Virus record (IMG/VR): IMGVR_UViG_3300010002_000010
Coordinates: 27,949-91,948 of that record
Origin: a virus
Taxonomy: Duplodnaviria; Heunggongvirae; Uroviricota; Caudoviricetes
Strand: one strand, 5' to 3'
Length of the DNA stretch: 64,000 bases
The stretch's first letter is position 1. Each line of letters opens with the position of its first letter. Below are positions 6,976 through 53,151 of the stretch, piece by piece. A model generated the notes under the pieces. That model worked only from the letters and a program-made list of their open reading frames with translations, searched no databases and was not told the DNA's origin. Made by a program: the position numbers and the translations under genes.

Positions 6976-7612
6976 TTCCCGTTTTTTAAATCTTAAAGTG
7001 CCGTTTTGAAATTGTCAGAATATTCCGAATGTTCCGTTTTTAATGCCGGAAATTTTTTCAATATTCCGAATTTTCGGAATTGTCTGAATATTCATAAAAC
7101 TCGAAGTGCCGTGAATTATCAGAAAATTCTGAATATTCGATCTATTATAATTTTTAAAATATTCTAAATATTCCGACAATTTGAAAACTCGAAAGATTTA
7201 GAATTATCTAAATATTCGAAATTATCTGAACATTCGAAGTTGTCAGAATATTCCGATCATTGTAAATTGTCAGAATATTTCGAATTGATCGACAATTTGG
7301 AATTGTCAGAATATTCAGATCATTCAAAATATTCATAATTTTCCGCCGACGAACCACCGCAAATTATTTTAATATTCCGAATATTACGAATATTCCGACA
7401 ATTCTAAATAGATCGAATTTTCTGAATATTCCGAATAATTTGAATTTTCCGAATTGTCAGACTATTCAGAATTTATTGAATTAACGCCTATGAAAGAATA
7501 TTCCGACAATTCAATTTTTACAATAATCGAAATATTCCGAATATTTTGAAAATTCAAATTGATCGAAAATTCAGAATATTTGTAATATAAAATAACTATT
7601 TTAAAATGTGAA
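6976..7612. repeat. repeat array R1: about 20 copies of the GAATATTC-centred motif (full site approx TTGTCAGAATATTCTGACAA, half-site GAATATTCCGACAATTC) in both orientations
   Basis: Counted directly; contains the variant GTGCCGTGAATT and the GC island CCGCCGACGAACCACCG at 7343-7359. Confidence 0.9.
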
Positions 7613-7621
7613 ATAAAAAAA

Positions 7622-7648
7622 ATGGGATTCTTTCGAATCCCGAATGAT
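7622..7648 (-). terminator. rho-independent terminator for 7656-7907
   Basis: gggattc-tttcg-aatccc with a T-run on the minus strand. Confidence 0.7.
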
Positions 7649-7655
7649 TTGTTTC

Positions 7656-7907
7656 TTAAAGTAAGTTATTCAATTCTTCAACATGTTTTGAAACTCGATT
7701 TGCTTGAAGAATGAAAATTGTCAATCCTTGTGGACTCATTTCATTTTCATGAAACTTAATTACGAAATGATTTGAGATCGGATTGTGAGATAATGTCACT
7801 TCTGAAATCGGATTGTCAAAGTGAAAACGGCCAAACGAATATGTCGCATTTGCATATCCTAATTCTTCAAGTTTTGAAATTACGTTTTGTACTGTTTTGT
7901 AATTCAT
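7656..7907 (-). CDS. hypothetical protein (83 aa), possible helix-turn-helix DNA-binding protein
   Basis: RBS aaaggacg; the N-terminal KTVQNVISKLEELGYANAT segment looks like an HTH (weak). Confidence 0.5.
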   Translation of the reverse strand: MNYKTVQNVISKLEELGYANATYSFGRFHFDNPISEVTLSHNPISNHFVIKFHENEMSPQGLTIFILQANRVSKHVEELNNLL

Positions 7908-8026
7908 TTTTCAACGTCCTTTATTTTGTATTTAAGGTCTTTTGTTTGTCTCAACCTTATATATTAATTATACATCTAAAGCCCACAAAAGTACACAGTT
8001 TTTGGAAATTAAATTGTAAAACTTTT

Positions 8027-8160
8027 AGAAACAATTCTGACAATTTAATATGATCGTGTCAGAATATTCTGACAATTCAAAAAAACTTAATTGTCGGAAT
8101 TTTCAGAATATTAAAACAATGAAGCCGCAATTGTCAGAATTGTTCTAAAAAATAATACAA
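8027..8160. repeat. repeat array R2: about 4 copies of the GAATATTC motif, including the perfect palindrome GTCAGAATATTCTGAC
   Basis: Read directly. Confidence 0.85.
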
Positions 8161-8179
8161 ATTAATTTCCGTAAAACTG

Positions 8180-8208
8180 TGTACAAAGCCCATTTTAAAT
8201 GTTATAAT
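8180..8208 (+). promoter_or_regulatory. plus-strand early promoter TGTACAaagccc-N-TGtTATAAT
   Basis: tgtaca at 8180-8185, tataat at 8203-8208, 17-nt spacer. Confidence 0.65.
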
Positions 8209-8260
8209 ATATATAAGAGGTTAAGTAATTGATCTCAAAAACGAAAAGAGGATGATGAAA

Positions 8261-8434
8261 ATGTTACAAGAAACTGCAAAATGTTTACAAGAACTTTCAG
8301 AAAACGGATTTTACAAATTTGAAAACGAAATGTTCGATTTTGAAAATGTTGTTGAATTAGTAAATCCAATTCTCAAATCTTTGAAAGTTGATTTTGAAGT
8401 AAATAACGAAAAAGAAGAAATCAAAATTTTCTAA
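8261..8434 (+). CDS. hypothetical protein (57 aa)
   Basis: Third in-frame ATG chosen (aagagg RBS, 9-nt spacing); terminator follows at 8436-8465. Confidence 0.5.
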   Translation: MLQETAKCLQELSENGFYKFENEMFDFENVVELVNPILKSLKVDFEVNNEKEEIKIF

Positions 8435-8464
8435 AATGAAAGAGTCGAAAGACTCTTTTCATTT

Positions 8465-8905
8465 TGTTTTCAATTGTCAGACAATTCTGAAAATTCTGAA
8501 TCGATCATTGTTTGAATTTTTGGAATATTCAGACAATTCGAAATATTCAGGAAATTTAGAAAAGTCGTTAAATTCAGAATATTCAGATAATTCAGAATAG
8601 TCGTTAAATTCAGACAATTCAAAATGGCCGCAATATTCGAACAATTCAGAATATTCTGACAATTCGAAATGATCTAAATATTCAGACAATTCAAAATATT
8701 CTGACTAATTAGAATTGGCGCTTAATTCAGAATATTCCGACAATTACGACAATTATGAATATTCTAATAATTCGAAATATTCAGAATTTTCTGATAATTT
8801 GCGGTGGTTCGTCGGCGGGACAAATAGATCGAAGATTGAGAATATTCCGACAATTCAGAATATTGAAAAAATTCACGGCACATTACTCAGAATATTCTGA
8901 CAATT
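8465..8905. repeat. repeat array R3: about 13 copies of the GAATATTC motif; contains TAATTTGCGGTGGTTCGTCGGCGG at 8794-8818
   Basis: Counted directly; the repeat-derived ORFs 8477-8689 and 8715-8900 are artefacts. Confidence 0.9.
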
Positions 8906-8907
8906 CC

Positions 8908-8933
8908 AAAATATAAAAAATCCCAAAATGGGA
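8908..8933 (-). terminator. rho-independent terminator for 8934-9233
   Basis: atccca-aaa-tgggat with a T-run on the minus strand. Confidence 0.7.
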
Positions 8934-9233
8934 TTATTTAAAAGATCTTCTGTATTGAGAAGTGACTTTACGTCTGAGATTTGAGAGCCATGTAGAGTCC
9001 TGTGTCGCTCTGTATGACTCAATAGCATTGTCATAGTCATCTGTATTAACTTCAAAAAAGTAGTGATTTAATACATCTTCATCTGCGACGAGAGCTAGTT
9101 CTTTATGATAGATACTATTTTCTTTTTTGAAAAACCAGATCTCATTTTCTCGTTTTTCAATTTCGTAAAATGCTCCAGAAATGATTGTAGGATTTGTAAT
9201 TGTTTTCATAAGCATAACTATTTTTCGTGGCAT
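8934..9233 (-). CDS. hypothetical protein (~99 aa)
   Basis: Start set to the third ATG (9233), which has 9-nt spacing from aaaaagg. Confidence 0.5.
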   Translation of the reverse strand: MPRKIVMLMKTITNPTIISGAFYEIEKRENEIWFFKKENSIYHKELALVADEDVLNHYFFEVNTDDYDNAIESYRATQDSTWLSNLRRKVTSQYRRSFK

Positions 9234-9360
9234 TTTCATCATCCTTTTTTCTGTATTTTAGATCTGCATGAAACAGCTCATAAGAAAATTGTACTACAAA
9301 ATTTCCGCAATGTACATAGTTTTTAAATAAAAAAAAATAAAAAGAATTTCCATAAAACTA

Positions 9361-9389
9361 TGTACATTTGCGGGAATTACTGTTATAAT
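9361..9389 (+). promoter_or_regulatory. plus-strand early promoter TGTACA-N17-TGtTATAAT
   Basis: tgtaca at 9361-9366, tataat at 9384-9389. Confidence 0.65.
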
Positions 9390-9443
9390 AAATATATAAG
9401 GTTAAGCAATTAATCTTAAATAAAAACGAAATGAGTTGAGAAA

Positions 9444-9686
9444 ATGTTAGTCAAAGAAACAGAGCAAGCTCTGAAAGATCTAATGAAACTTGACAAAGTA
9501 GAATTATTAACAACGAAAGGAAAAATTCAAACTTGGTTCGTGTGTGAAAAAAACGGACAACAAGTCATTCTAAGAACGTTTCACTACATGAGCAATAACA
9601 AAAAGAACGTTTCGATCTGTGAACTAATGACACTTGAAAACGGAAAAACAATTTGGTACCCACGAAAAAAATTCATAAATGTATGA
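9444..9686 (+). CDS. hypothetical protein (80 aa)
   Basis: Conserved leader upstream; terminator at 9688-9716 (aaagagccgcgaggctcttt). Confidence 0.55.
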   Translation: MLVKETEQALKDLMKLDKVELLTTKGKIQTWFVCEKNGQQVILRTFHYMSNNKKNVSICELMTLENGKTIWYPRKKFINV

Positions 9687-9719
9687 AAATGAAAAAGAGC
9701 CGCGAGGCTCTTTTCATTT

Positions 9720-10035
9720 GTCATTTTCAATTGTCGGAATATTCTAAATAATTAGAAAGATCGAAAAATTGAATTGTCAGAATATTCTTTCACAAGCGCT
9801 AATTCACAATATTCTGACAATTCAGAATTGTCATTAAATTCAGAATATTTAGAAAATAAAAAATGTTTTTAGATCATTTTGAATATTCAGATAATTTAAA
9901 ATATTCAAAAGATTGAAAAAATTCGCGGCTCTTAAAACAGAACGTTTTGATAATTCTAAATATTCTGACAATTTCGAATATTCTGAAAATTACGAATATT
10001 CAGAAGATTGAAAAAATTCACAGCACGTTAGCTTT
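9720..10035. repeat. repeat array R4: about 9 copies of the GAATATTC motif
   Basis: Counted directly. Confidence 0.9.
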
Positions 10036-11639: not shown

Positions 11640-12101
11640 TTATTCGTTAACTTCTTCAATGTTTGTGATTTGGAAAGTTGCAAGGGCTTTTTTGTTACGT
11701 CCGCGAAGCAAGTACCAAAGAATGTCATTGCGGAATGTAGTTCCATGTTTTTCATTGTAATATTCCGCAAAATCTTTATTTGAGAAGAACTCTTTAGTTT
11801 CTCCGTCTTCAGTTGTAACACGAACCATTGAAGAGTTACGACGTCCTGGAGTGCTTGAAGTTTTTTGAGCTTGAGCTTCGCGGTTTAATTGAGCGTCTTG
11901 TTCGATTTGTTCAACGATTTCTGATTTTTCCCCAGTCATTTCTGTGTGTTGTAATTCAAGGATTGCAGAAACGAGTTGAGATTGTTTCATTTTCCATGCT
12001 CCGTGAATCTCATAGTTTTTGTCTTTGATGATCTGTTTAAGTTCCGCAACTTTCATTCCTTCGAGTTGAGTCGCTGTGTACGTTGTAGTTGTCTGTGTCA
12101 T
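11640..12101 (-). CDS. hypothetical protein (153 aa) with an N-terminal SAP/Rho-N-like helix pair
   Basis: LEGMKVAELKQIIKDKNYEIHGAWKMKQSQLVSAI resembles a SAP/Rho_N motif (weak). Confidence 0.5.
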   Translation of the reverse strand: MTQTTTTYTATQLEGMKVAELKQIIKDKNYEIHGAWKMKQSQLVSAILELQHTEMTGEKSEIVEQIEQDAQLNREAQAQKTSSTPGRRNSSMVRVTTEDGETKEFFSNKDFAEYYNEKHGTTFRNDILWYLLRGRNKKALATFQITNIEEVNE

Positions 12102-20546: not shown

Positions 20547-20576
20547 GTCTATTCTTCCTTTCTTTTATAAAATTTC

Positions 20577-20716: not shown

Positions 20717-21319
20717 TTATTTAAGTGTCATTTTTTCAAAACATTTGTCACAAATTGACAAATATGATGATTTTGCCTCGAGGAAAGTATCGCCATCTGT
20801 TACAACATGACCATCAATGATCCGAGCATTGTTTTCGGCGTAATCCAAGCAGTCTGGCATTTGACACTCTGTTACAATGAACTCAATTTTAGGTCGAGCC
20901 TTAATCAAGGTAGTAATTGCTGGGAATTGCTCATTTTTAAAATCTCGATCTAATCCATAAATCTTTGTATTAAGATTTTTAATTTTTGTCCATTCAATAA
21001 TAATCTCCATTTGATCTGGTGTTAAAAATTGAGCTTCATCAATTAAAACGGTTGAATTTTCTTTGATTCTTGAAAGATACACATTTAAAAAAACAACGCC
21101 TTCTTTTGAATTAATTGGAATGGCGGCGACTTCTCTTCCGTCTCGAGAAGTAATTTTTGTAAAATCAAGTGATACACTGTATGAATCTAGCGATCCAGCA
21201 AACAACCAAATCATTTCTATTTTGGTGTTTTTAGAAAGATCTGTTAAATAATCAATTAATTGCTTTGTCTTTCCCGCGCCCATTAAACCTGTAATGAAAT
21301 GTAAATTTTTGTTTTCCAT
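20717..21319 (-). CDS. tdk: thymidine kinase
   Basis: P-loop GLMGAGKT, VLIDEAQF and C-terminal Cys pairs; start set to the ATG at 21319 (7 nt from ggag). Confidence 0.85.
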   Translation of the reverse strand: MENKNLHFITGLMGAGKTKQLIDYLTDLSKNTKIEMIWLFAGSLDSYSVSLDFTKITSRDGREVAAIPINSKEGVVFLNVYLSRIKENSTVLIDEAQFLTPDQMEIIIEWTKIKNLNTKIYGLDRDFKNEQFPAITTLIKARPKIEFIVTECQMPDCLDYAENNARIIDGHVVTDGDTFLEAKSSYLSICDKCFEKMTLK

Positions 21320-21403
21320 CATCAATCTCCTATCAAAGTGCTTTATTCCTTACATTTATATTATACTTGATCTTTCAAAATGAGAAAGAAAAATAAAAAA
21401 AAA

Positions 21404-21580
21404 TTAGAGGATTTTCTTTTCCTCTAACTTTTTTACAATTTCATCTGGATCAACAGGTAGGATCTCATTATAAACGCGGAAATACCTCGTTCTCAAGCAT
21501 TTTACATATTCATCATAAGGTTGATCCTTTGTCATTATACCTTTGTTTTTCATTTGTTCAATTCTTTCCCGTGAGTTCAT
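21404..21580 (-). CDS. small hypothetical protein (58 aa); not in the ORF track
   Basis: Strong RBS gaggagg with 7-nt spacing; a terminator hairpin overlaps its stop codon. Confidence 0.4.
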   Translation of the reverse strand: MNSRERIEQMKNKGIMTKDQPYDEYVKCLRTRYFRVYNEILPVDPDEIVKKLEEKKIL

Positions 21581-21621
21581 TGCAGATCCTCCTCATATTT
21601 TTTTGAAAAAAAGAGCGCGGC

Positions 21622-22686
21622 TTAAGCCACACTCCAATATTTTTTTGCACGTCGTAATGCTTCAGGTAAAACATGAGTCATTTCGAGCATTTCTAAAAGT
21701 TCAATGAGGATCTCTTTTCTGTTTGCATTGTTTTTTACAAGTTTTGGTTCGACTTTATGGGCAATTGCAAATTCAATCATGCGATGTGTAACTTCGACCC
21801 AAAGCTTAATTTCTTTAAAATCGACTGATCCGTGATGTCCGCGAAATTCAACAGTACCATATTTCACATACTTGTTAAGTGTAATTGAGCGATATTTTTG
21901 TCCAAATAAGCTTTGAAGCTTTGTTAATCTTAAGTTTGAATCTTCTAGTTGTAAAATTTCGTCGTCAATCATTCCACGGTTTGTAATTGGTTCGCAATAA
22001 CGAGTTGTCCAGCGATCTTTTTTCAAAAGAAGCGATAATCCTTTTTGATAGCGTCCAAATAGTGCAAAGAAACTTAACAATTGATTTCCGTCTAAATCTG
22101 AAATGTCGTGATGCACATGTAAACCGGTTTTTTTAGTTCCTTTACAGCCAATTCCTTTAAGTGCGGAAGTAACTTTTTCCAGCGCTTTAAAGTCATTGAT
22201 CGGAGGCGAGACAACTTCCCAGCCTTGGATTGATCCGTCCGGCTGTACTTCCCACGTTTTTCCTGCAGGACACGAAGAATATCGATCAGATTTTACGGGA
22301 ACTCCAACGTTATTGATAGCGTCGACTAACTGACTACTACGTAAGTTTGTCGTCACTTCAAGTTCCACACCAAATTTCATTTTCCGATTTGCCCATGCTG
22401 GATTGATAATCTCAACACTTGAAGCTGTTACAACTTCAGACTCGATCGGAATTGAAAATTTGTTTGAAAACGGTGCAGGCAATCCATCAACGAATGAGAA
22501 CAAATATCCTCCAGTTGTGTATTTCCGTCCGGCTTTCGTTGGAATATTCTGTGCTAATGATTTATGAACCCAATCAAAATGACAGATACCATTTTCTTTT
22601 GACCACTTACATGCTTCAAGAACAGAGTCAAAAACTTTGATCTCGTTACCCATGTGTGTCAATCGAACCGCGCGTTTTTTATTCAT
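21622..22686 (-). CDS. glutamine-synthetase-like amidoligase (Amidoligase_2 family) with a ~100-aa N-terminal extension
   Basis: Ordered motifs FGVELEV, EVQPDGS, GWEVVSPP, GLHVHHD and TVEFRGHHGS match the family signature as I recall it; the N-terminal GNEIKVFDSVLEACK...GGYLF segment resembles a NUMOD1-type HTH. Confidence 0.55.
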   Translation of the reverse strand: MNKKRAVRLTHMGNEIKVFDSVLEACKWSKENGICHFDWVHKSLAQNIPTKAGRKYTTGGYLFSFVDGLPAPFSNKFSIPIESEVVTASSVEIINPAWANRKMKFGVELEVTTNLRSSQLVDAINNVGVPVKSDRYSSCPAGKTWEVQPDGSIQGWEVVSPPINDFKALEKVTSALKGIGCKGTKKTGLHVHHDISDLDGNQLLSFFALFGRYQKGLSLLLKKDRWTTRYCEPITNRGMIDDEILQLEDSNLRLTKLQSLFGQKYRSITLNKYVKYGTVEFRGHHGSVDFKEIKLWVEVTHRMIEFAIAHKVEPKLVKNNANRKEILIELLEMLEMTHVLPEALRRAKKYWSVA

Positions 22687-22811
22687 TTGTCAAATACCTC
22701 AGCTTTCATGATAAAATATTTTTCCTTATAAATATATTATACCACAGTTGAGCAAAAAAGTGAACTCTTTTCTTAAATTAGGTTTACTTTAATTTTATTT
22801 TTTCAAAAAAA

Positions 22812-23438
22812 TTATTCTAAATATGAAGATTTAATAATGTCTTGGAGATGAGTTTTTAAGACTCGAATCCGAGAATGAGCCGCCTGTGTGGTAATGCCCT
22901 TAGCCTCCGCATAATCGACAACGGCATTTTTCTTTCGATCAAGGATCAACTCGAGAAGTTCCTTGTCTTTGTCTTTGATGAGAGCGTTTTCAATAATGGA
23001 CAATAGCTCTTTTCCATCATATGTTGATTCAACTGAATCTGATCCATCAATCAAAAGATCTTGTAACTCATCAGCAGACTCTGCTTCCGAAGTAACAACT
23101 TCTTTATTTAGTGAAATTTCTTTTCCGTGATCTTCTCGTTTTTTAGCTTTTGTTGGCTGAAGCACCTTGTCTCGGGCGCGATTCATTCTGTGGTGTAAGT
23201 AAGTTGAAAAACAATTTCCGGTAGTTGAATCATACCGATCATAGGCTACCCAAAGTTGCAAGAAAAATTCTTGTCGCATGTCTTCTTCATTGTATCGATT
23301 GAAAAACATGTTCTTATTCATATCGTGAACATTTTTCTCAATAAGAGGAATAAACATTTCGTGGACTTCTTCATATGTCAAATCTTTTAAAACTTTCTTG
23401 CCATCTTCCATAATGTAAAGCTTCTTTGTTTGATCCAT
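22812..23438 (-). CDS. sigma-70 family RNA polymerase sigma factor
   Basis: Region 2 (FFLQLWVAYDRYD...FSTYLHHRM) and a C-terminal region 4 HTH (GITTQAAHSRIRVLKTHL). Confidence 0.8.
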   Translation of the reverse strand: MDQTKKLYIMEDGKKVLKDLTYEEVHEMFIPLIEKNVHDMNKNMFFNRYNEEDMRQEFFLQLWVAYDRYDSTTGNCFSTYLHHRMNRARDKVLQPTKAKKREDHGKEISLNKEVVTSEAESADELQDLLIDGSDSVESTYDGKELLSIIENALIKDKDKELLELILDRKKNAVVDYAEAKGITTQAAHSRIRVLKTHLQDIIKSSYLE

Positions 23439-26746: not shown

Positions 26747-27985
26747 TTATTCTTCATTGTACAGTTTGACTTTCTCGCCTTGTAGATAGATTTCTCCATT
26801 TTTCTGGCCAACAATTTTAATCGTGGTATGATTAATAGATGATCCGCGAGTATTTAAAACAAACTCGGCATCCCGTCGGTAACCATTCAAGATCAGTAAT
26901 GTTCCGCGCTCAAACCAGCTAGGATCCAAGACTTCTTTATCTTTTCCTTTTACCTGAACAACTTTTTTATCATAGTGGGCAAAAGTTCCTTTTGTATAAC
27001 GGATTGTGACAACACCATCTTGAGTTAATACAAAGATCAAGCTTTTGGTTTTGTCTTTATCTACTACTGTTCCCGCAATTGTGCTAATTTGATAGTTCGG
27101 GATTTCACGGCCACGCCATTTTTTCCATTCTCGAACAACAGGAACTTCCGGAAGCTCTTCAAATTTGGAAATATTATAAAGGCTTGACAGATCATAATAG
27201 TCCAGTTCATGTTTATGCTTATAATAAAGCAATGTTGACATTTCCCAAGCTTCAATTGATCCCGAGCATTCATCGATCCAAAATTGTTTACGGTTTTTGG
27301 CAGTAAGAATCTGAACAGTTTCAGGTTTTGCTAACCATTCTTTCAGTCGGCCAATACCTTTTTCATAGTATTTCTTGAATGATTTTTCATCAATTACAAG
27401 CTTTCCTTTTTCAAAAGTGTATTCGACATGATCTTTATATTTTGCAATAAATTCATCTTCGATTTCACGAGTCATTACTGCTTTTTTACCGACCGCTTTA
27501 ATTTTGAAATTATACAATTCCAATTCTGGTCCGTATTCTTCTTTATTAATATGATCGATTACATGCGGAAGATTTGCCATTGTCAATTTTGTTTTTGCTG
27601 GTACCGCAATCTTAACAAAATCAATCATTAGTTTTCTGCGGTCTGATTCAAATTCATCAAATGATCCTGACTTAATTAATGTTACAATTTTCTTATTTGA
27701 AATTCCAGATCCCTCAAATGACGTTTTTTCTAAGAAATTCTCAAAAGAAGTATAAGGACGATTAGCAATGACAGTTGCGACAACATCTTTCCCAAGCCCA
27801 ACAATTGGTTTCAATCCAAACAGGATCTTATTCTCTGATTCAAGTGGCGTAAATCCTGGACGAGATTTATTAATATCTGGCGGAAGAACTTCATCTTTAA
27901 TATTTCCGATCGCTTTTGCAATCTTACCATATTTTGTATTAGTTTCTTTTTCACCTGATAATCCTGAGTTTACGGATAAACAAGC
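26747..27985 (-). CDS. dnaE: DNA polymerase III alpha (DnaE)-like polymerase, exon 2 (C-terminal part: ILPPDIN-like motif, HhH, OB region); 5' boundary approximate
   Basis: VLPPDINKS and LKPIVGLGKDVVATVIANRPY align with DnaE fingers/HhH segments; continues the 29046-31538 frame across the intron. Confidence 0.75.
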   Translation of the reverse strand, partial: ACLSVNSGLSGEKETNTKYGKIAKAIGNIKDEVLPPDINKSRPGFTPLESENKILFGLKPIVGLGKDVVATVIANRPYTSFENFLEKTSFEGSGISNKKIVTLIKSGSFDEFESDRRKLMIDFVKIAVPAKTKLTMANLPHVIDHINKEEYGPELELYNFKIKAVGKKAVMTREIEDEFIAKYKDHVEYTFEKGKLVIDEKSFKKYYEKGIGRLKEWLAKPETVQILTAKNRKQFWIDECSGSIEAWEMSTLLYYKHKHELDYYDLSSLYNISKFEELPEVPVVREWKKWRGREIPNYQISTIAGTVVDKDKTKSLIFVLTQDGVVTIRYTKGTFAHYDKKVVQVKGKDKEVLDPSWFERGTLLILNGYRRDAEFVLNTRGSSINHTTIKIVGQKNGEIYLQGEKVKLYNEE

Positions 27986-29045
27986 TGTTTTCCAAAATAC
28001 AGATCCAAAGAGAAGGCAGATATTCATCTCAATCATCAAGATCAAAGTATAGCCCGCAATGTGTGGAAGTGAGAATGCATCATGTGATCCAAATTTTTCA
28101 ATCTGGCATGGACTATATCTTTACAATGCGATCCAATTATTTAAATTTGAAATAGGGCGCCCGTCGAAAGCTATTTGATCTTTGAATATTTACTTCAATA
28201 TGATTCACCCGCTTATTTAACTCTTTCGCGGCTTCATATATATCTGTAAACTCTTTGATTAAAGATCCATCAATGTTAAAATACAAAATTGGTTTTCCAA
28301 CTAATTCTTGTTTGCGGTTTTTAATTCCGCCCACTTTTGCATTTATAGGACATTGTTTTTTACGCTTTTCGCTGGTTCGATTAATCAGTCCATTTTCTGA
28401 AGCATGTTTCATATTGCCCGCGTTATCTGTCCATTCTAAATTTGTATAATGGTTATTTTGTTTATTACCATCTAAATGGTTAACCACATTAAATTTATTA
28501 GGATCCGGGTTTTTAACAAACGTTTCACATACCAGCCGATGAATATATTTCTCAATTGGTCCTAATCTTGTTCTAAAATATCCATTAGGTAATAGAGTTT
28601 GCTTCTCAATTCGTTCTGGCCGTATATACTTTCTTCCGTCTGTTCCAATATGAATATGATTTAATCGTTTTACTTCACCGTTTTCCGAAACTAAAAAATT
28701 TGAATCATCTGCTGTTGTTTTCCATTCCATAAGAAACTCTCCTTATAAATGGATCGCATTGTACTTTGCTCTTCGAATAACGTACCAATAGTTATCCTAC
28801 TCTACTAACTTCCACAATTTCTGTGTGCTTTCGATAGTCTCTACACCTTCAATTAAGCTAGGCACGGTATTATCGGCTACCCATATTTCAGGGTTTAGAT
28901 TCTCTTAGTCAGCGGCTTCGTCTTTTGGTAAATCCTGTCATTTCCTTGTTAGGCTTGGACAGAAGTCTTATTCAACTGATACCGTTAGCATGATCTTAAG
29001 ATCATACACCCCTGGTTGGGTTCACAAAGTTAACGGGCAAGCTAT
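27986..29045 (-). mobile_element. group I intron (approximate bounds) in the polymerase gene, carrying an HNH homing endonuclease ORF
   Basis: ~1.06 kb interruption between aligned DnaE segments (...SYVWTYCLEPQF | ...ACLSVNSG...LPPDIN); ~310-nt GC-richer non-coding block at 28731-29045. Confidence 0.7.
28137..28730 (-). CDS. HNH homing endonuclease (intron-encoded)
   Basis: HNH-type motif ...VNHLDGNKQNNHYTNLEW...; RBS aaggagag. Confidence 0.75.
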   Translation of the reverse strand: MEWKTTADDSNFLVSENGEVKRLNHIHIGTDGRKYIRPERIEKQTLLPNGYFRTRLGPIEKYIHRLVCETFVKNPDPNKFNVVNHLDGNKQNNHYTNLEWTDNAGNMKHASENGLINRTSEKRKKQCPINAKVGGIKNRKQELVGKPILYFNIDGSLIKEFTDIYEAAKELNKRVNHIEVNIQRSNSFRRAPYFKFK

Positions 29046-31538
29046 TCACCCAAATTGTGGTTCTAGGCAATAAGTCCAAACATAGCTTAAGAATAAAACA
29101 CTTGTCCCAAGATCTTTTCCCTGTTCAAAGAATAATTCTTTTTGCTCCGCAATGAGCTCTTTATTCTGTTTAGCTACGGCTTTCCGGAATTTATTGGCTT
29201 GAGTTAATGTGAACCCTGAGATTTTTTGATCCATCGAGATCTCCATAAGACCTTCTTGTGTATCGCAGATTCCGTATCGATCATTTAGGTGGTTAATTAG
29301 AATATTTTTTTCGTCTTCAGTTAAATTATTTTCGTCCATTTCTTTATACCAAAGAGAAATATCATTCTTAAATTCAACATATTTATCGATCGGTTGTTTT
29401 CCTGAAGTTGTTAATCGCATCAATGAGTTACCCGCAGATAATTCATCAAAAGATTGCGGTTTAATTTTGTTCAGTGCACTAATACCAACATTGGTTTCAA
29501 ATTGGAAAGCATTGAATACCTCACCTTTTGCAAGCATTTCGTACATTTGCGGATCTTGCATCTCTAAAACATCTGGATGAAGATATTTTTCATAAGTCTC
29601 CCGCAGAGTACCTTGCCATTCAATTTTACCGTATTCTTCCAATAAAGCCATAGCTTCACGGATCCGCCCAAGTGCATCAACTGAAAGGAAATCTAATTTT
29701 AAACCGCCCAATGCTTCTGTATCTTTTGCATCGAATTGAGTAACCGCTAATCCTTTTGTTGTTTGCATTAATACATTTTGTTCGATATATCCGTTAGGGA
29801 AAATTACAATTCCTGAAGCGTGCTGAGATCGACCAGAAATTAATCCTTCAATTGAAAGCAAAGCATCTCGCAATCCTTCATGACTATCAACCTCATTAAT
29901 AAACTCTTGAACAGGACGGCGTTTTTCTTCTTCGTTTCCAAAGAGACAATCTCGAATTGGCCAGTTTTCTGCTTTTTCTTTTGGAATTAGGTTTGCAATA
30001 TTCATTGCAATATCTTTATCAATATCTAATCCACGGCAAGCAGTTAATACAGATGATCGGGATTTTTCTGTTGTAAATGTTCCCATGTTCAAAACATTTT
30101 CTTCGCCAAACTCTTTTTTAATAAGTTCAACAATTTCCAATCGTTTTGATCCTTCAGTATCAATGTCAATATCTGGCAACTCTACCCGCTCTTTTGACAA
30201 GAAACGCCAGTGAGGAAGTTTATATTTAATTGGGTTGATTTGAACAATATCTAACAAATAGTTTGTGTAATAACAACTTGCTGATCCACGAGAAACTCCG
30301 ACCAGCGAAACTTTCCACATAATATCAACTACTTGCTTTGTTAAGGTAAAGTAAGAAGATAGCGGTTGGTTAAGTGCTTTGGAAATATGCCAGATCTCAT
30401 TTAGCTCGGTATTAATACGATCAAGGTTTTCATGATTGTATTCTTCGTTCCGTCGAACCATTCCCTCTTCAATTAGCTTCAAATAATAACGGTCAACAAG
30501 GTTTGGGCTGTTTTTAAATTCACCAATATAGTTGTATGCAATGGTAAACTTATCAAATGAAGTTGCTTCTGTAAAGTCTGCTGGAATCTTCGTATTTGGA
30601 ACTTTAATTGGCTGATCCAAACTATATGATTCAATTTTGCTTTGGATCTCAATTGTATTTTTTGCCAACACCCGAAGTAGATTATCTGGGAAAAATTCAA
30701 GCAGTTCATCGTATGACATTACATAAGTTGTTCCATAGAATTGATCGACTTCTCGCTCTCCTTCTGAGGCTTGCAAATATGCGCGGTGTTGATCTTGGAA
30801 ACCTTTATTCAAATAATGGGCATCTGTGGCGACAATACATTTCACATTGTACACTTCTGATAATTTCAAAAGCATGCGGTTTGCCGTGTGTTGATCTTTT
30901 TGGTAAGATGGTTGAAGCTCAAAATAGAAATCAGTTCCAAACAAGCCTTTCATCAAAGTAACAAAATCGTGCATTTTCTTTTTTAATTCCTGCGATGGGT
31001 TTTCATCATAAGCAATTAAATATTGCGGTAGTTCTCCACCAACACAAGCAGTAGTTGCGATAAGATCTCCTGAATATTCTTGCATAATTTCATAAAGATC
31101 ATCTTTATATGTTGGAACACGGAACATACCGTTTTGGTAAAATCCATTTTTCCAAGCTTTTGATGATAGGATTTTAAGAGCTTTATAACCGCGTTCATTT
31201 TTAGCAATTAAAATGAAATGAGGATATTTAATTTTAGTGCCGTTTTCGAGGCTATCTTCTACTTTATCACGGTCAAGAAGATAGATCTCATTACCAAGTC
31301 CAATTGAATAATCATCAGGTAATTTACCTGCTTCTTTTTGCTTTTTAACATATTTTAATAATTTTACATGATTTGACAAAGCTTCATGATCGGTGCAAAC
31401 AAACCCCTTCAAACCAATTTCTGCGGTATAATCAACTAACATTGTGATCTTGTTAATCGCATCACGTAGACGGAAATTGCTTGCATCAGAGTGAGAATGT
31501 GTTAAGAAAATATTTTTATATTCTGGCAGTGTATTCAT
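29046..31538 (-). CDS. dnaE: DNA polymerase III alpha (DnaE)-like polymerase, exon 1 (PHP domain plus palm and fingers)
   Basis: PHP motifs HSHSDAS...CTDHE; C-terminal ...LSYVWTYCLEPQF aligns with DnaE ...VSYQTAWLKAHYPAEF; RBS aggagga. Confidence 0.8.
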   Translation of the reverse strand: MNTLPEYKNIFLTHSHSDASNFRLRDAINKITMLVDYTAEIGLKGFVCTDHEALSNHVKLLKYVKKQKEAGKLPDDYSIGLGNEIYLLDRDKVEDSLENGTKIKYPHFILIAKNERGYKALKILSSKAWKNGFYQNGMFRVPTYKDDLYEIMQEYSGDLIATTACVGGELPQYLIAYDENPSQELKKKMHDFVTLMKGLFGTDFYFELQPSYQKDQHTANRMLLKLSEVYNVKCIVATDAHYLNKGFQDQHRAYLQASEGEREVDQFYGTTYVMSYDELLEFFPDNLLRVLAKNTIEIQSKIESYSLDQPIKVPNTKIPADFTEATSFDKFTIAYNYIGEFKNSPNLVDRYYLKLIEEGMVRRNEEYNHENLDRINTELNEIWHISKALNQPLSSYFTLTKQVVDIMWKVSLVGVSRGSASCYYTNYLLDIVQINPIKYKLPHWRFLSKERVELPDIDIDTEGSKRLEIVELIKKEFGEENVLNMGTFTTEKSRSSVLTACRGLDIDKDIAMNIANLIPKEKAENWPIRDCLFGNEEEKRRPVQEFINEVDSHEGLRDALLSIEGLISGRSQHASGIVIFPNGYIEQNVLMQTTKGLAVTQFDAKDTEALGGLKLDFLSVDALGRIREAMALLEEYGKIEWQGTLRETYEKYLHPDVLEMQDPQMYEMLAKGEVFNAFQFETNVGISALNKIKPQSFDELSAGNSLMRLTTSGKQPIDKYVEFKNDISLWYKEMDENNLTEDEKNILINHLNDRYGICDTQEGLMEISMDQKISGFTLTQANKFRKAVAKQNKELIAEQKELFFEQGKDLGTSVLFLSYVWTYCLEPQFG

Positions 31539-33458: not shown

Positions 33459-33953
33459 TTATTTTTCCTCCATTTTAAAGTTATCCATTGCAATATTTAC
33501 CAAAAGATCCGCTCGGTTGTTACCTTCATTATCTGAGTGGCCTTTTACTTTTACAAAATCGATCCATTCAAACTTTTCCATTTCTAAGAGCAGTCGTTCC
33601 CATAATTCTTTATTAGCGACAGGTTTTTTGGCAGTTGTTCTCCAACCATTCATTTGCCAAAGTTTATAACTTTCTTTTTTGATCGCATTAATTACATACG
33701 CGGAATCCGAATGAATTACAACCGGAACCTCTTTTTTGGTAATTGCTACCATGGCGGCGATAATAGCTTTCATCTCCATCTGGTTATTTGTTACCCCGAC
33801 TTCTGCTCGAGAATATTCTTTTTCGTGACCTTTGAAAGTAAGAATACATGCCCAAGCACCAATTGCATTTTTCTTGCCGTTCCCGCGAACTCCGCCATCT
33901 ACCCAGCAATGAATGGCAGTTTTCTTTGTATCAATAAATCCTGTTTTGTTCAT
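33459..33953 (-). CDS. rnhA: ribonuclease HI
   Basis: DGG..G...G, TNN.MEM.A, HSDS.Y and KGH..N.GN..AD RNase HI signature blocks. Confidence 0.85.
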   Translation of the reverse strand: MNKTGFIDTKKTAIHCWVDGGVRGNGKKNAIGAWACILTFKGHEKEYSRAEVGVTNNQMEMKAIIAAMVAITKKEVPVVIHSDSAYVINAIKKESYKLWQMNGWRTTAKKPVANKELWERLLLEMEKFEWIDFVKVKGHSDNEGNNRADLLVNIAMDNFKMEEK

Positions 33954-34804
33954 TTGAATTCCCTCCAGAATTTTATTTGCAGTTTCTTATAAACAATTCT
34001 ATTTCTTGAATATTCAATAATTGTTGTTCTTGGAACACTATAACCTTTTTCCAATAATTTTTTACCCAAATCATCAGCGCCACGGCCAGATAAAACCTCA
34101 TTTGTTTCAAGAATTTGAGCAAACATTATTTTTGAATTTGGATTATCTTTTCCAAATTTACCGTACATAGAATTTTTGGCGCCGGTTCGATCCGTTGGAT
34201 TTTCTTTTTTAGTTTTACTAATTTTTTCAAGGGTTTTTTTAGAATGTTTTTTTCCAAAAAATGGATTGTTTGATCCTGAGAAATCAATGCTTTTAGTTCT
34301 CATACCGTTTTTATCGCCGGTAATCTTATGACCTTGACCAAACATACTATTCCCTGATCCAGCCATTTGTTCACTTCGCATTTTTCGAATGCGGTTCATT
34401 TGTTTATCAGAATATCCTGCGTATGGATTTCCTTGATAGCCACCATCTTTTAGATTATACCAATCTCGATCTTTAACGGCGTCAAAAACTGTGTTAATAT
34501 AATGACGCTCCATTATTTCAAGATCCTCATAGGTTTTGCAAAGATGTATAATTCTTCTTTCAAAGCTCTCTTTACCATGTTTTTTGATAGCTTTTGCAAG
34601 AACAGTTCCACTGCCTAAATATGCTTTCATCCAACTAGTATGTTGGCCAACATATTTTCTTCCGTTGTTTTTATTTATAGTCACATAAATAAAACCTGCA
34701 TACATTTCTCTATCAATGCTTTCAAAATCATGGTTTTCCATATCCTGACAGATCAAACGATATTCGTCATCATTGTCAGGATTCCAATTGGAATGGCCAT
34801 TCAT
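33950..34804 (-). CDS. free-standing GIY-YIG homing endonuclease with NUMOD3-like repeats
   Basis: GFIYVTINKNNGRKYVGQ (GIY...YVG); three N.x(F/Y)G.....K repeats (NSMFGQGHK, NNPFFGKKHSKKT, NSMYGKFGK). Confidence 0.8.
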   Translation of the reverse strand: MNGHSNWNPDNDDEYRLICQDMENHDFESIDREMYAGFIYVTINKNNGRKYVGQHTSWMKAYLGSGTVLAKAIKKHGKESFERRIIHLCKTYEDLEIMERHYINTVFDAVKDRDWYNLKDGGYQGNPYAGYSDKQMNRIRKMRSEQMAGSGNSMFGQGHKITGDKNGMRTKSIDFSGSNNPFFGKKHSKKTLEKISKTKKENPTDRTGAKNSMYGKFGKDNPNSKIMFAQILETNEVLSGRGADDLGKKLLEKGYSVPRTTIIEYSRNRIVYKKLQIKFWREFK

Positions 34805-46486: not shown

Positions 46487-47419
46487 TTAAGAACTACATG
46501 CTAAACAGTTATCTTCATATTTTTTATCCCAAGTACGAGTGTAGTAAGATGTCTTAATACCTTTTTTCCAAGCTCGAACATGAAGCGAAAGCAACTTTTT
46601 AGCCGATGTTCCTTGTGGTACATAGAAATTAAATGATGATGCTTGATCGACAAAAATCTGACGAGCCGCGTTATGGTCAATAGCAAATTCATGGGCAAGA
46701 CCTTCATCAGCTTTTTTCATTTTCATAGTTGGTTTGTAGTAATGCCATGTTACAGGGTTTAGGTTTGGCACAATCAATGGAAGCATGAAATCTTTTTTGC
46801 GCTCCATGAAGATTACATCAAAGATTGGATCAATTCCGGCGGTAGATCCAGCAATTACCGAAGTGGCTCCGGTTGGCGCAGGTGATCGAAGATAACCATT
46901 CCGCATACAGCGTGAAGCCATTTTTTGAACAATCTCCCATAAAGGGTGATTCAAATGACCATCTGCTTTTCGTTTTTCAAACCATTCACCAGTCTGCCAT
47001 TCAGATCCTTCAAATACTTTATAAGATCCTTTTTCTTTTCCAAGAATTGATGAGTTCATGATTGTATAAAGCATGATTTCTTCCTCAAGTTCCTGAATGT
47101 ATTTTGTGGCTTCTTCTGAATCCCAATCGAGTTGTTTATCAGCAAGCAAAGCCGCGATTCCTTGTTCTCCAGCACCAACAGCTCGATATTTTTTATTGGT
47201 AAACTCTGCTTGTGGAACAGGTGCTGTTTGTAATGAAATTACATTATCCAACGCTCGCATTTGAATTGCGATAATACGATCAAGAACGTCATCACGGACA
47301 ACATTATTCAGAACCAACGATGAAAGGTTACAGGTAACTAGATCACCAATTGATTTAGTAATGATTACTTTTTCATTAGCCCAATCAATCTCTTGTTGTT
47401 CAACATTTGATGGGGACAT
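46487..47419 (-). CDS. nrdE: ribonucleotide reductase alpha subunit NrdE, exon 2 (C-terminal part; true 5' splice boundary lies a few codons inside the frame, near ...QEIDW)
   Basis: ...EIDW...LVTCNLSSLVL matches the post-SNLC-x-EI region and the second catalytic Cys loop. Confidence 0.8.
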   Translation of the reverse strand: MSPSNVEQQEIDWANEKVIITKSIGDLVTCNLSSLVLNNVVRDDVLDRIIAIQMRALDNVISLQTAPVPQAEFTNKKYRAVGAGEQGIAALLADKQLDWDSEEATKYIQELEEEIMLYTIMNSSILGKEKGSYKVFEGSEWQTGEWFEKRKADGHLNHPLWEIVQKMASRCMRNGYLRSPAPTGATSVIAGSTAGIDPIFDVIFMERKKDFMLPLIVPNLNPVTWHYYKPTMKMKKADEGLAHEFAIDHNAARQIFVDQASSFNFYVPQGTSAKKLLSLHVRAWKKGIKTSYYTRTWDKKYEDNCLACSS

Positions 47420-48361
47420 GTTCTGCCCAATTTCAGTCCTGCATATTCCCTCTAGCTCGCTATGCTAGAAGCGTCACTCTTGGTGACTGCTATATGTTGC
47501 CATATAGAGTAGACTATATCATGATCTTAAATTAAGATCCCTTGCTTTTCCATTTAAGAGGTTTTACACTACCTTATTACGGTAACACCTCACCCCAATA
47601 GCTTGGGCTGTACTCTACTCCCTTAACCTTTCGGCGGTTTCGATAGTCGTTCGGCATTTATTAATCAATCTTATCAAGCATATTTCCAATCAGGATATTT
47701 TTCACTTTTTAACTTATACAGAACGCCACTCTTACTTTTATATCCTAACTTCTTCGCGGCTTCAGTAATACTTTCATATTCAATACTATTAATAATACAT
47801 TTTTTGGAATTTGCTTCTTTTACGCTGTTAATCATTTTTTGTGATTTTGGTTTACCATATTGATGGTTTCCAGATCCAGACATTTGATCCACTCTCATTT
47901 GTCTAATTCCTTCTTTATTTGGATGACCTGTAAAAACATCACCACCAATTGAAGAGAGTTTAATATTATAGAAGTCTTTTGAATTTACGGCATCGAACAT
48001 TAAAATATAATATTCTTCAACTTCTCTTAACTCTTTTTCATTATCACATTCATCAATAATGATCTTGTAAAAGTTTTCTTTCCCATATTTATTGATTGCT
48101 CTTTTTAAATAAACTCCGCTTCCTAAATACTTTTCCCATGAGTTTATTCTTGAATAAACACATTTTCCAACATATTTTTTACCAGTAAGTTTATTAATTG
48201 TGATATAAACAAAACCATATTTCAAGTTTTTATTCTCCATTCTTAAATGCCAATAAAAGAATGATAAGATTGATTAAATTTAGCACGGGATTGTCCTCAT
48301 GGGATATTCCCCGTTTAACAAGGTTTTTCGATAAGCTTTTCAGCTTAAAGGTGCTAAGAAA
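47420..48361 (-). mobile_element. group I intron (approximate bounds) in nrdE, carrying a GIY-YIG endonuclease ORF
   Basis: Exon 1 ends ...YSSNLC followed by a stop; the obligatory xEI continuation is found ~940 nt downstream; non-coding blocks flank the GIY-YIG ORF. Confidence 0.75.
47674..48240 (-). CDS. GIY-YIG homing endonuclease (intron-encoded)
   Basis: YGFVYITINKLTGKKYVGK (GIY...YVG motif); 188 aa. Confidence 0.8.
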   Translation of the reverse strand: MENKNLKYGFVYITINKLTGKKYVGKCVYSRINSWEKYLGSGVYLKRAINKYGKENFYKIIIDECDNEKELREVEEYYILMFDAVNSKDFYNIKLSSIGGDVFTGHPNKEGIRQMRVDQMSGSGNHQYGKPKSQKMINSVKEANSKKCIINSIEYESITEAAKKLGYKSKSGVLYKLKSEKYPDWKYA

Positions 48362-52326: not shown

Positions 52327-53151
52327 TTATTTTTTATCAACGATTACTGATCCAGCACCATCAACTTCAACATACGATCCATTCCATTTTTTAGCTTTTT
52401 CATATTCAACCAATTCTTTTGTGATTGATTTTGAAATTTCCACGTTAGCTTTAGCTTCCGCTTGAGCCTTGATTAATTTTTGTTCAGCTTCTGAGGTTGC
52501 TTGAACTTTTTTCTGTTCAGCCTCAGCTTTTGCAATTGCAAGATCTGTTTTCTTTTTATCAAGTTCTTGTGAAGCCTTTACTCGAGAATCAATTGCGGTT
52601 TGAGTTGCTTGGTCAGGTTTTGGTGCTCCAAGACCGATTTCTGAAATTTCAAAGCCTTTATCTAAAATGTTTTTAGAAAACAATTCTTTGATCTCAGCTT
52701 GGGCTTTACCAGATTTATTTCCGTAAATATCAATCAAACTGTAATTAGAGATTACATTTCGAGTTGCATCAAGCAAACGGCGTTTGATATATCCTTTTTC
52801 CAGTTCCTCAACAGGCAAAGATCCAAACTCTTTATAAATCGCAACTACATCAGTAGAGCTAATTGAATATGTGTAGTTAATATCCATTTCAATGTTTTTA
52901 CCGTCTGAAGTAGACACTACCATATTTTTAGAATCAACAGTACGAGATTTAGTTGGATATTCATTTACTTTATCGAACAATCCGATCACATGCCAACCAG
53001 GTGTTAAGACTTCATCTTTAACTCCACCAGATGCGGAATAAACAATGCCTACATTACCGTTATCAATTTTCTCTGTAAACAGTAAGAAGAATGCTAATCC
53101 TAAAATTAAACCTAAGCCAACAAGTGCTCCGCCTTTTTGTCCTGTACTCAT
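52327..53151 (-). CDS. SPFH/band-7 (stomatin/prohibitin-like) membrane protein
   Basis: N-terminal TM, SPFH core and a C-terminal Ala/Glu/Lys-rich coiled coil. Confidence 0.75.
   Translation of the reverse strand: MSTGQKGGALVGLGLILGLAFFLLFTEKIDNGNVGIVYSASGGVKDEVLTPGWHVIGLFDKVNEYPTKSRTVDSKNMVVSTSDGKNIEMDINYTYSISSTDVVAIYKEFGSLPVEELEKGYIKRRLLDATRNVISNYSLIDIYGNKSGKAQAEIKELFSKNILDKGFEISEIGLGAPKPDQATQTAIDSRVKASQELDKKKTDLAIAKAEAEQKKVQATSEAEQKLIKAQAEAKANVEISKSITKELVEYEKAKKWNGSYVEVDGAGSVIVDKK

Follow-up and report, generated by a model that had tools for sequence, protein, structure and literature searches.

The stretch of 64,000 nucleotides analysed here (the window) encodes a protein in which, in the window's lineage, an HTH domain is fused in frame to the N-terminus of an Amidoligase_2 core via a flexible linker of about 35 residues. 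Judging from its sequence, the gene product is an intact and probably active ATP-dependent carboxylate-amine ligase of this family, and we infer that it works together with a small protein encoded next to it. At a probability of roughly 0.45, we favour a reading in which this putatively DNA-tethered ligase and its small partner act on a DNA-associated protein or amine. The Amidoligase_2 family was reportedly defined computationally in 2009; it is common in phages and mobile elements, and its substrate is a long-standing question. A literature search retrieved no experimental report of activity, substrate or product for any of its members.

The amidoligase locus and its expression signals

The amidoligase gene lies between tdk (20717..21325) and the sigma-factor gene (22812..23438), as had been stated in the preliminary description, and one 58-aa ORF separates it from tdk. 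The ThyA-like gene, the DHFR gene, the genes for two dUTPase types and the two dNMP-kinase-like genes listed there for the window were all recovered. In the 77% identical relative (L004), the -10 region, the RBS and the start of the amidoligase gene are kept. The hairpin that spans the amidoligase stop codon is a possible attenuator ahead of the small ORF, as far as the sequence can tell, and beyond the hairpin that closes the two-gene unit tdk has a TATAAT promoter-like site of its own. Elsewhere in the window, GAATATTC arrays are present at 7.0-10.0 kb.

Table 1. Features of the amidoligase locus, in window coordinates.
Feature	Position	Strand	Details
Promoter-like site, sigma-70 type	22736..22764	-	TTCACT-17-TATAAT with TG (extended -10); 10/12 matches
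Shine-Dalgarno GAGGT of amidoligase	22696..22700	-	9 nt 5' of the ATG at 22686; invariant in L008 and L004
Amidoligase ORF	21622..22686	-	ATG start, 354 aa; HTH domain, linker and Amidoligase_2 core
N-terminal HTH domain, residues 3-67	22486..22680	-	beta-beta-alpha-alpha-beta, homing-endonuclease type (predicted); AF2 pLDDT 83
Linker, residues 68-102	22381..22485	-	predicted disordered; pLDDT 29-38 over residues 71-100
Amidoligase_2 catalytic core, residues 103-354	21622..22380	-	Pfam match, invariant residues, Foldseek
Terminator-like hairpin over amidoligase stop codon	21612..21635	-	10 pairs, 6 G-C, then T run
Shine-Dalgarno GAGGAGG of small partner ORF	21588..21594	-	read from sequence
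Small partner protein	21404..21580	-	58 aa; unannotated family; R32 invariant, Thr17 and Leu52 near-invariant
Terminator-like hairpin closing the two-gene unit (amidoligase and small ORF)	21397..21434	-	

The catalytic core belongs to Amidoligase_2

All four motifs by which the ORF had originally been recognised were found in the order described, namely FGVELEV (residues 105-111), EVQPDGS...GWEVVSPP (residues 146-162), GLHVHHD (residues 188-194) and TVEFRGHHGS (residues 278-287). The family membership proposed from these motifs was borne out by an HMM search, which gave a match to Pfam PF12224 with E=3.5e-25 and 89.7 bits (cutoff 22) that extended over residues 102-303 and covered profile positions 2-244 of 245. 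Similarly, the protein matched PHROG 2443 (E=8.6e-33) and PHROG 7469 (E=2.5e-16), both of which are amidoligase families. Residues E108, E110, D150, E157, H190, H192, H193, R225, E280 and R282, which are of the metal-/ATP-binding type, are invariant among 14-15 aligned Amidoligase_2 members, and the conserved-residue signature GVELE, DGS..GxExVSP, GxHVHH and GTxExR is present in the window protein. The AF2 model of the full-length protein, built from an input of 14 sequences, was of moderate confidence (pLDDT 70), with values of about 80-97 for the core. When the core of this model was compared to the PDB with Foldseek, the top matches were GshF, YbdK, GmaS, GS, Dop and PafA, with E values from 2e-5 to 2e-3 and a probability of 1.0 at sequence identities of 9-14%.

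Full-length relatives of 354 aa share 98%, about 92% and 77% identity with the window protein, and an alignment-based scan of IMG/VR yielded 73 loci. No match was obtained when window positions 20000-24000 were compared to phages by megablast, and exact-peptide scans of IMG/VR, GTDB genomes and JGI metagenomes gave no close amidoligase relatives. None of the amidoligase, the small ORF, GGCT and the orphan ORFs matched a defence system in PADLOC.

The N-terminal extension is a constrained HTH-type domain

Unfused relatives begin with M(R)KMKFGVELEV, equivalent to M103 of the window protein, and the N-terminal extension is real. An internal start at M103 is unlikely, as it is preceded by no convincing SD and the frame ahead of it evolves under selection. 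The preliminary description had called the extension HTH-like and of NUMOD1 type. Its fold was confirmed at the level of the model, which matches the HTH of I-HmuI, I-TevI and sCTP-23166, and matches of the domain in BFVD were mostly HNH, GIY-YIG and NUMOD1 proteins. However, the Pfam part of that assignment did not stand, and neither the NUMOD1 nor the I-HmuI_NUMOD-like model matched residues 1-103 at E<=1 or any of the 10 homologues of the domain that were scanned. Against Pfam as a whole the domain gave just one sub-threshold match, to GalBD_like, and a PDB sequence profile search gave chance matches only. In an exhaustive HMMER search, its sequence relatives turned out to be C-terminal parts of proteins with Rho_N or GIY-YIG+NUMOD3, and one homologue has this place in the GIY-YIG+NUMOD3 protein P0029; nearest in sequence are the C-terminal domains of Rho_N proteins that the phages themselves encode.

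DNA binding by the same HTH fold is experimental in sCTP-23166, I-HmuI and I-TevI (PMC10319021), and the predicted fold suggests that the HTH domain of the window protein also binds DNA. In a comparison with the P0002 gene, the N-domain shows 90% amino acid identity, with pN 0.069 and pS 0.75, and the core 74% identity, with pN 0.166, while the linker is the segment that varies most and has an in-frame indel; the reading frame is kept across indels. These values indicate tighter purifying selection on the N-domain than on the core. Because the N-domain is so strongly constrained, the earlier suggestion that the extension could target the enzyme to DNA is reasonable, with DNA binding read from the fold. 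Other clades carry separate N-terminal extensions on their amidoligases: that of the Porphyromonas/oral-phage clade is about 64 aa long and HTH-like by eye, without Pfam support, and those of high-GC clades are Cys-rich, Arg-rich and weakly zinc-ribbon-like, with sub-threshold Pfam matches only. Macromolecule targeting would therefore seem to be a recurring theme in these enzymes.

Concerning its origin, copying from a homing endonuclease of the same genome was dropped as an explanation, since neither the three HEG ORFs nor any other ORF of the window resembles the domain. A simple relocation of the HTH from a Rho_N protein was also rejected, since the window keeps a Rho_N-like ORF (11640..12101). 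This ORF persists with a different C-terminus, and the fusion thus represents an extra or diverged copy.

A small partner protein and recurrent GGCT or GATase neighbours

Geobacillus phage GR1 and metagenomic relatives share the gene order GK - RusA - sigma - amidoligase - small ORF - (tdk) - topoisomerase, and the amidoligase is, on the evidence of these sequences, a conserved member of the block for replication and nucleotide metabolism in GR1-like siphoviruses of Bacillaceae. Every GR1-like locus has the small ORF directly 3' of the amidoligase, and a profile of its family matches in 64 of 80 amidoligase phage loci, adjoining the amidoligase. No match above threshold was obtained for it in Pfam, PHROG, NCBIfam, PADLOC or PDB. 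In two loci (L087 and L095) a member of the family forms the C-terminal part of a fusion with a GGCT-like protein, and a fusion to the amidoligase itself was not detected. The family and its GGCT fusion are new points with respect to the preliminary description, which had overlooked both the small gene, read here as co-transcribed with the amidoligase, and the GGCT that recurs as a partner in relatives. The small protein may be an adaptor, a carrier, a substrate or an inhibitor. A Pup-like tag was rejected because of its C-terminus: it ends in KKIL, family tails are KKIL, GIL or acidic, and there is no conserved C-terminal Gly-Gly-Glu/Gln.

According to the Pfam family description, Amidoligase_2 genes neighbour an AIG2/GGCT cyclotransferase in Firmicutes or a GAT-like peptidase. 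In our set of loci, GGCT occurs within about 3 kb of the amidoligase in 17 of 80, among them GR1, L007, 055SW001 and M2, which is an association and no requirement; jackhmmer detected no GGCT homologue within the 64-kb window. In other loci, GATase-like ORFs follow directly downstream. The recurrence of GGCT as a partner in relatives points towards gamma-glutamyl-type amide chemistry, not thymidine hypermodification, and by analogy with those relatives the window enzyme may carry out gamma-glutamyl chemistry as well.

The ThyA-like gene and DNA modification

The only ThyA-family gene of the window had been taken to encode a genuine thymidylate synthase. This is probably not the case, as Asp replaces the residue at the position of Asn177 in E. 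coli and Leu is found at position 143, a combination from which the product is predicted to be a dCMP methyltransferase. Going by this sequence, the phage probably makes a modified cytosine, with 5-methyl-dC as the expected product. Asp177 denotes a preference for dCMP and Leu143 the transfer of a methyl rather than a hydroxymethyl group, which does not correspond to a dUMP hydroxymethylase supplying 5-hmdU. Two ORFs had been put forward as candidates for HMUDK or aGPT-Pplase homologues. One of them, at 58593-59633, turned out to be sigma-factor-like instead (phrog_5767, E=1e-64), and the other, at 56262-57635, had no match in any search. A scan of part of the ORFs, run without dedicated HMMs, gave no match to 5-HMUDK or aGPT-Pplase, and no match to TET/JBP, glycosyltransferase or radical-SAM proteins was obtained among the window ORFs scanned. 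The P-loop ORFs of the window are AAA_24, guanylate-kinase-like and dTMP-kinase-like. The ORF at 56262-57635, an orphan of 457 aa, adjoins the ThyA-like gene.

Proposed mechanism and alternative explanations

In the mechanism that we propose, the HTH domain would hold the ligase on DNA, the small partner would serve as adaptor or carrier, and the ligase would modify a DNA-associated target through an amide or isopeptide bond of gamma-glutamyl type; as the target, a protein or amine is likelier than a DNA base. Early in infection, this might serve host takeover or counter-defence. In relatives, the bond made by the ligase would be processed or undone by a GGCT or GATase-type hydrolase whose gene adjoins the pair.

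Alternatively, and in our estimation unlikely, the enzyme might perform small-molecule or cell-envelope chemistry and make a gamma-glutamyl-amine or peptide metabolite, its N-domain being regulatory or incidental. Phage amidoligase cassettes are said to have been proposed by Iyer et al. in 2009 to remodel peptidoglycan peptides, thereby blocking superinfection. The GGCT and GATase partners of relatives agree with a metabolite product, and so do the nearest solved folds, the small-molecule ligases GshF, YbdK, gamma-glutamylmethylamide synthetase and GS; the protein ligases PafA and Dop are, however, equally good fold matches. The window has no ATP-grasp, second ligase, GATase or GGCT, and a constrained DNA-binding-type domain with a near-universal small partner fits a macromolecular target better. 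For the cassettes of phiEco32, LUZ24 and PSA-HP1, the literature does propose peptidoglycan modification, as a hypothesis only (PMC5498523, PMC11318856). It is unlikely that the HTH domain is an autoregulator or operator-binding module, comparable to I-TevI in its autorepression, or a recently captured fragment without a targeting role, and that the enzyme acts like its unfused relatives of 250 aa. Those relatives evidently work without the domain, whose own nearest relatives are small stand-alone Rho_N-HTH proteins, but the domain is the best-conserved part between genes with saturated synonymous sites. Such conservation excludes a neutral relic and is compatible with a regulatory role, against which it counts that no repeats or operator-like palindromes were found around the amidoligase promoter. 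The N-terminal extensions acquired independently in other clades point to a function tied to the enzyme itself and also weigh against this reading.

Quite improbable, and speculative as in the preliminary description, is DNA-base hypermodification, in which the HTH would bring the ligase to phage DNA for the amidation of a carboxyl- or amino-bearing base such as an oxidised 5-methylcytosine derivative or an amino-alkyl pyrimidine. The fusion to a DNA-binding-type domain, the modified cytosine made probable by Asp177 and Leu143, and the orphan ORF beside the ThyA-like gene are all consistent with it. Furthermore, Pfam domains of amidoligases and amidotransferases accompany clusters for thymidine hypermodification in viral metagenomes, where the amidoligases figure only as co-occurring genes of unknown function (PMC8989533). 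However, 5-methylcytosine has no carboxyl or amine group to ligate, and the enzymes of base modification searched for gave no match among the ORFs scanned. GR1-like phages that have ThyX and lack the fusion keep the amidoligase/small-ORF pair at the same position, it is GGCT or GATase, not DNA-modification enzymes, that recur as partners, and the amidoligases of other phages lie in varied, accessory-looking contexts. The link once drawn to SP10 found no support either, with no SP10 record among the 39 records listed as matches in a tblastn search of 50,697 phage records.

A bolder reading is also conceivable, although we regard it as a long shot. Amidoligase, the partner of about 60 aa and GGCT/GATase might constitute a widespread and so far undescribed "writer - adaptor - eraser" phage system on nucleic-acid-bound targets, whose writer, DNA-tethered in the window's lineage, would install an amino-acid adduct of gamma-glutamyl type on a DNA base (5-methylcytosine genome) or on a DNA-bound host protein (nucleoid protein, RNA polymerase or defence nuclease). 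If true, phages would thereby have a new way of countering restriction or taking over the host. The natural fusion to a DNA-binding-type domain provides an experimental handle that would place the enzyme on DNA, and the near-universal partner, sometimes GGCT-fused, defines the smallest set of components for reconstitution. DNA or a DNA-bound protein as the target would mean a new class of amide-forming modification encoded by phages, and a metabolite as the target would still give a large orphan family a function.

Comparison with known systems

Among phages of Firmicutes, GR1 (UDY80723.1) and Bacillus phage 055SW001 (gp40) encode members of the same family, with 36% and 29% core identity, respectively, and the same invariant residues. 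UDY80723.1 occupies the same genomic position as the window amidoligase, and in both phages a member of the same small-protein family then follows, as in the window. In contrast to the 354-aa window protein with its HTH, these Firmicutes-phage proteins have 251-300 aa and no HTH; both phages have GGCT nearby, whereas the window does not, and in GR1 the HTH domain resides on a separate Rho_N protein. The cassettes of phiEco32, LUZ24 and PSA-HP1 combine a GS-like amidoligase, which they have in common with the window, with a gamma-glutamyl cyclotransferase and a glutamine amidotransferase. They contain several ligases (ATP-grasp, second amidoligase), whereas the window has a single ligase with a small partner and a DNA-binding-type domain.

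With YbdK and GshF (gamma-glutamylcysteine ligase), GmaS, glutamine synthetase and PafA/Dop the window core shares its predicted fold but is much smaller, with about 250 aa. As for this carboxylate-amine ligase superfamily, the modelled fold would lead one to expect the ATP-dependent formation of an acyl-phosphate and then of an amide. Pup, the small disordered tag protein of the PafA/Dop system, ends in GGQ/GGE and is ligated via its C-terminal Glu; the small protein of the window is no Pup-like partner. The modelled N-domain appears to have the fold of the homing-endonuclease HTH (NUMOD1/IENR1; I-HmuI, I-TevI C-terminal domain), but the copy in the window is N-terminal and sits on a ligase rather than on a nuclease. 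In the butirosin pathway, the substrate is bound to the phosphopantetheinyl carrier BtrI when the ATP-grasp enzyme BtrJ caps it with a protective gamma-glutamyl group, which the gamma-glutamyl cyclotransferase BtrG removes later. By analogy only, and with no homology claimed, this logic of ligase, small protein and GGCT is the one that the window's relatives may follow.

Domain architecture of the amidoligase

The ORF encoding the amidoligase, which starts with ATG, gave a significant match to Pfam Amidoligase_2 (E = 3.5e-25; 89.7 bits versus a cutoff of 22), residues 102-303 covering the model almost from end to end, and PHROG amidoligase families matched as well. All four motifs from which a preliminary description had recognized this family were located (residues 105-111, 146-162, 188-194 and 278-287), bearing out both the ORF and its assignment. 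With E108, E110, D150, E157, H190, H192, H193, R225, E280 and R282 invariant in an alignment with 13-14 relatives, the enzyme looks catalytically intact. An AlphaFold2 model (mean pLDDT 70; core mostly 80-97) led Foldseek to the gamma-glutamylcysteine ligases GshF and YbdK, gamma-glutamylmethylamide synthetase, glutamine synthetases, and the Pup enzymes Dop and PafA, and the modeled fold is that of carboxylate-amine ligases.

Unfused relatives (249-294 aa) begin with M(R)KMKFGVELEV at the position aligned with M103, which indicates that about 100 residues were added in frame upstream of the core. This fusion is retained in 354-aa relatives of 98%, about 92% and 77% identity. In comparison with the 77% relative, where synonymous changes have reached saturation (pS 0.75), identity is 90% over residues 1-68 (pN 0.069) and 74% over the core (pN 0.166), and the linker carries compensating in-frame indels; disorder is predicted for residues 68-102. 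As judged from these substitutions, the extension is translated and under more constraint than the enzyme itself.

An exhaustive HMMER search matched residues 3-67 to the C-terminal end of small phage proteins (E from 2.6e-10); N-terminally, these proteins resemble Rho_N/SAP or, in a single case, contain GIY-YIG plus NUMOD3. AlphaFold2, provided with an alignment of these relatives, predicted a beta-beta-alpha-alpha-beta arrangement (pLDDT 83) for which BFVD returned HNH, GIY-YIG and NUMOD1 proteins. These relatives put the extension among DNA-binding modules, and its earlier description as HTH-like holds for the predicted fold. The Pfam NUMOD1 model, proposed as a check, gave no match to it, and the assignment thus rests on fold and domain partners. 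Overall, both identifications, that of the enzyme and that of the N-terminal domain, are well supported.

A search of all six reading frames of the window located the HTH domain in the amidoligase only. In Geobacillus phage GR1 and the related contig L006 it is part of a Rho_N protein that is encoded separately, a few kb downstream (E = 9e-37 and 4e-34, respectively). Downstream of their topoisomerase genes, the window, GR1 and L006 all have a conserved gene for a small Rho_N/SAP-like protein. The GR1 and L006 proteins end in the HTH module found on the window amidoligase, and the window protein has a differing C-terminus with, by eye, a similar beta-beta-alpha-alpha-beta pattern.

Other clades gained N-terminal extensions independently. 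Enzymes from Porphyromonas and oral phages carry about 64 additional residues, HTH-like by eye and without support from Pfam, high-GC clades possess Cys-rich, Arg-rich segments with weak, sub-threshold zinc-finger matches, and further types occur in yet other Amidoligase_2 clades. This recurrence suggests that the enzyme has repeatedly been directed to macromolecules.

Genomic setting

Coordinates of the features discussed
Feature	Coordinates	Strand	Details
Amidoligase	21622..22686	-	354 aa
Small partner	21404..21580	-	58 aa
Rho_N-like ORF	11640..12101	-	
Rho_N/SAP-like ORF, GR1	L003:11169-11543		
Rho_N/SAP-like ORF, L006	L006:15426-15965		
GGCT-small fusion (IMG/VR)	L087:7894-8610		~238 aa
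GGCT-small fusion (IMG/VR)	L095:7723-8442		~238 aa
ThyA-like protein	57686..58519	-	
DHFR	54724..55230	-	
Orphan ORF	56262..57635	-	457 aa
Second sigma-factor-like gene	58593..59633	-	phrog_5767, E = 1e-64
ATP-dependent DNA ligase	60648..61940	-	DNA_ligase_A_M, E = 1.4e-13
SPFH/Band-7 family protein	52327..53151	-	PF01145, E = 7e-30
PolC-like DNA polymerase	26747..31538	-	ORFs 29046..31538 and 26747..28045
HNH/NUMOD4 endonuclease	28137..28730		splits polymerase
RNR alpha	46487..49783	-	ORFs 48362..49783 and 46487..47419
GIY-YIG/I-TevI-type ORF	47674..48240		splits RNR alpha
GIY-YIG+NUMOD3 ORF	33950..34804		third endonuclease-type ORF
ORF-poor region	7018..10001		GAATATTC clusters 7018-7503, 8062-8897, 9737-10001

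A phage database search found no close record at the DNA level for the amidoligase region; exact copies of window proteins occur in one JGI contig of 91,948 bp and several Logan assemblies. The window is colinear with the siphovirus GR1 over nearly its whole length (33-69% protein identity), and the DNA to its left encodes siphovirus tail proteins. The order dUTPase - guanylate-kinase-like - RusA - sigma factor - amidoligase - small ORF - tdk - ... - topoisomerase subunits is also present in GR1 and metagenomic contigs, and confirms the reported placement between sigma-factor gene and tdk, with the small ORF separating amidoligase and tdk. The amidoligase gene is equipped with a promoter-like site of its own, of the extended -10 type (TTCACT-17-TATAAT + TG), and with the ribosome-binding site GAGGT; relatives have retained both. 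One hairpin overlaps its stop codon, a GAGGAGG site 3' of this hairpin precedes the small ORF, and a second hairpin closes the unit.

Elsewhere in the window, the SPFH/Band-7 gene lies inside the replication module. The palindromic 8-mer GAATATTC occurs 27 times (2.7 expected), 21 copies being located in the ORF-poor region, partly in 9/18/27-bp periodic arrays that may be binding sites for a DNA-binding protein (origin, partition or operator); no such enrichment was found in GR1 or other loci. The polymerase and RNR alpha genes are probably split by introns or inteins with homing endonucleases, and the L006 polymerase is split similarly.

A small partner protein and gamma-glutamyl enzymes

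The small partner is encoded in every GR1-like locus. In a set of 80 loci encoding an Amidoligase_2 relative, 73 of which came from an IMG/VR scan, jackhmmer placed its family directly downstream of the amidoligase in 47, and a 20-sequence profile detected it in 64. Of the remaining 16, two end at a contig edge, three have a look-alike ORF of 78-90 aa, and several have an ORF resembling glutamine amidotransferases (GATase) directly downstream. One Arg is invariant throughout the family, and a Thr and a Leu are nearly so. Searches of Pfam, PHROGs, NCBIfam, PADLOC and PDB sequences yielded no above-threshold match to it; no description was found in the literature searched, the scope of which excluded Iyer et al. 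(2009). Two loci, L087 and L095, encode a fusion protein about 0.9 kb downstream of the Amidoligase_2 gene: a GGCT/AIG2-like (gamma-glutamyl cyclotransferase) domain with a YGTLK motif makes up its N-terminal part, and a copy of the small domain follows at the C-terminus. Also, a GGCT is present within about 3 kb in 17 of the 80 loci, including GR1, L007 and Bacillus phages 055SW001 and M2, and none was found in the 64-kb window. This distribution defines a recurrent unit of ligase and small protein, with an optional enzyme cleaving gamma-glutamyl bonds.

Possible roles of the amidoligase

In the ThyA-like protein, previously taken for a genuine thymidylate synthase (TS), the residue aligned with E. 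coli TS Asn177 is Asp (RSQDFITAWNFD vs RSCDVFLGLPFN) and residue 143 is Leu (NLPPC); a TS-type C-terminus is retained. TS carrying N177D comes to prefer dCMP, and methyl is favoured over hydroxymethyl when residue 143 is hydrophobic (PMC8670742, PMC13326640). Within the 90% cluster of this protein all four sequences retain the Asp, and the closest relatives, Geobacillus virus E3 gp68 and phi3T ThyA, have Asn. Together with the nearby DHFR gene, these residues point to a likely dCMP methyltransferase instead, and the phage DNA may carry 5-methylcytosine.

With these residues, modified DNA becomes more plausible a priori for this phage, but 5-methylcytosine has no carboxyl or amino group for the ligase, which makes a link to the amidoligase speculative. 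Moreover, the pair of ligase and small ORF is equally present in relatives using ThyX, and nothing among the window ORFs scanned resembles a thymidine-hypermodification toolkit. The SP10-type pathway once suggested found no backing, there being no SP10 record among the tblastn matches listed for the amidoligase, and modification of DNA bases by this enzyme is the least probable of the roles weighed here. In PMC8989533, amidoligases appear only as co-occurring genes without an assigned function. Of the two large ORFs named as hypermodification candidates, one is sigma-factor-like; the other, the orphan ORF directly downstream of the ThyA-like gene, has no counterpart in GR1 and gave no significant match in Pfam, PHROGs, NCBIfam or PADLOC, or by tblastn in 50,697 phage records. 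The window P-loop ORFs are AAA_24 or dNMP-kinase-like. The GR1 homologue of the DNA ligase is annotated as a ThiF-type adenylyltransferase, probably a misannotation. A small-molecule or envelope role of the amidoligase is unlikely, and an autoregulatory HTH slightly more doubtful still.

As the preferred reading, to which we assign a probability of about 0.45, we infer that the amidoligase would be tethered to DNA and, acting together with the small partner, would modify a DNA-associated protein or amine with a gamma-glutamyl-type amide. For the extension, a parallel is sCTP: its authors equate its fold with that of the HTH domain at the C-terminus of I-HmuI and of I-TevI, and DNA binding has been demonstrated for it (PMC10319021).
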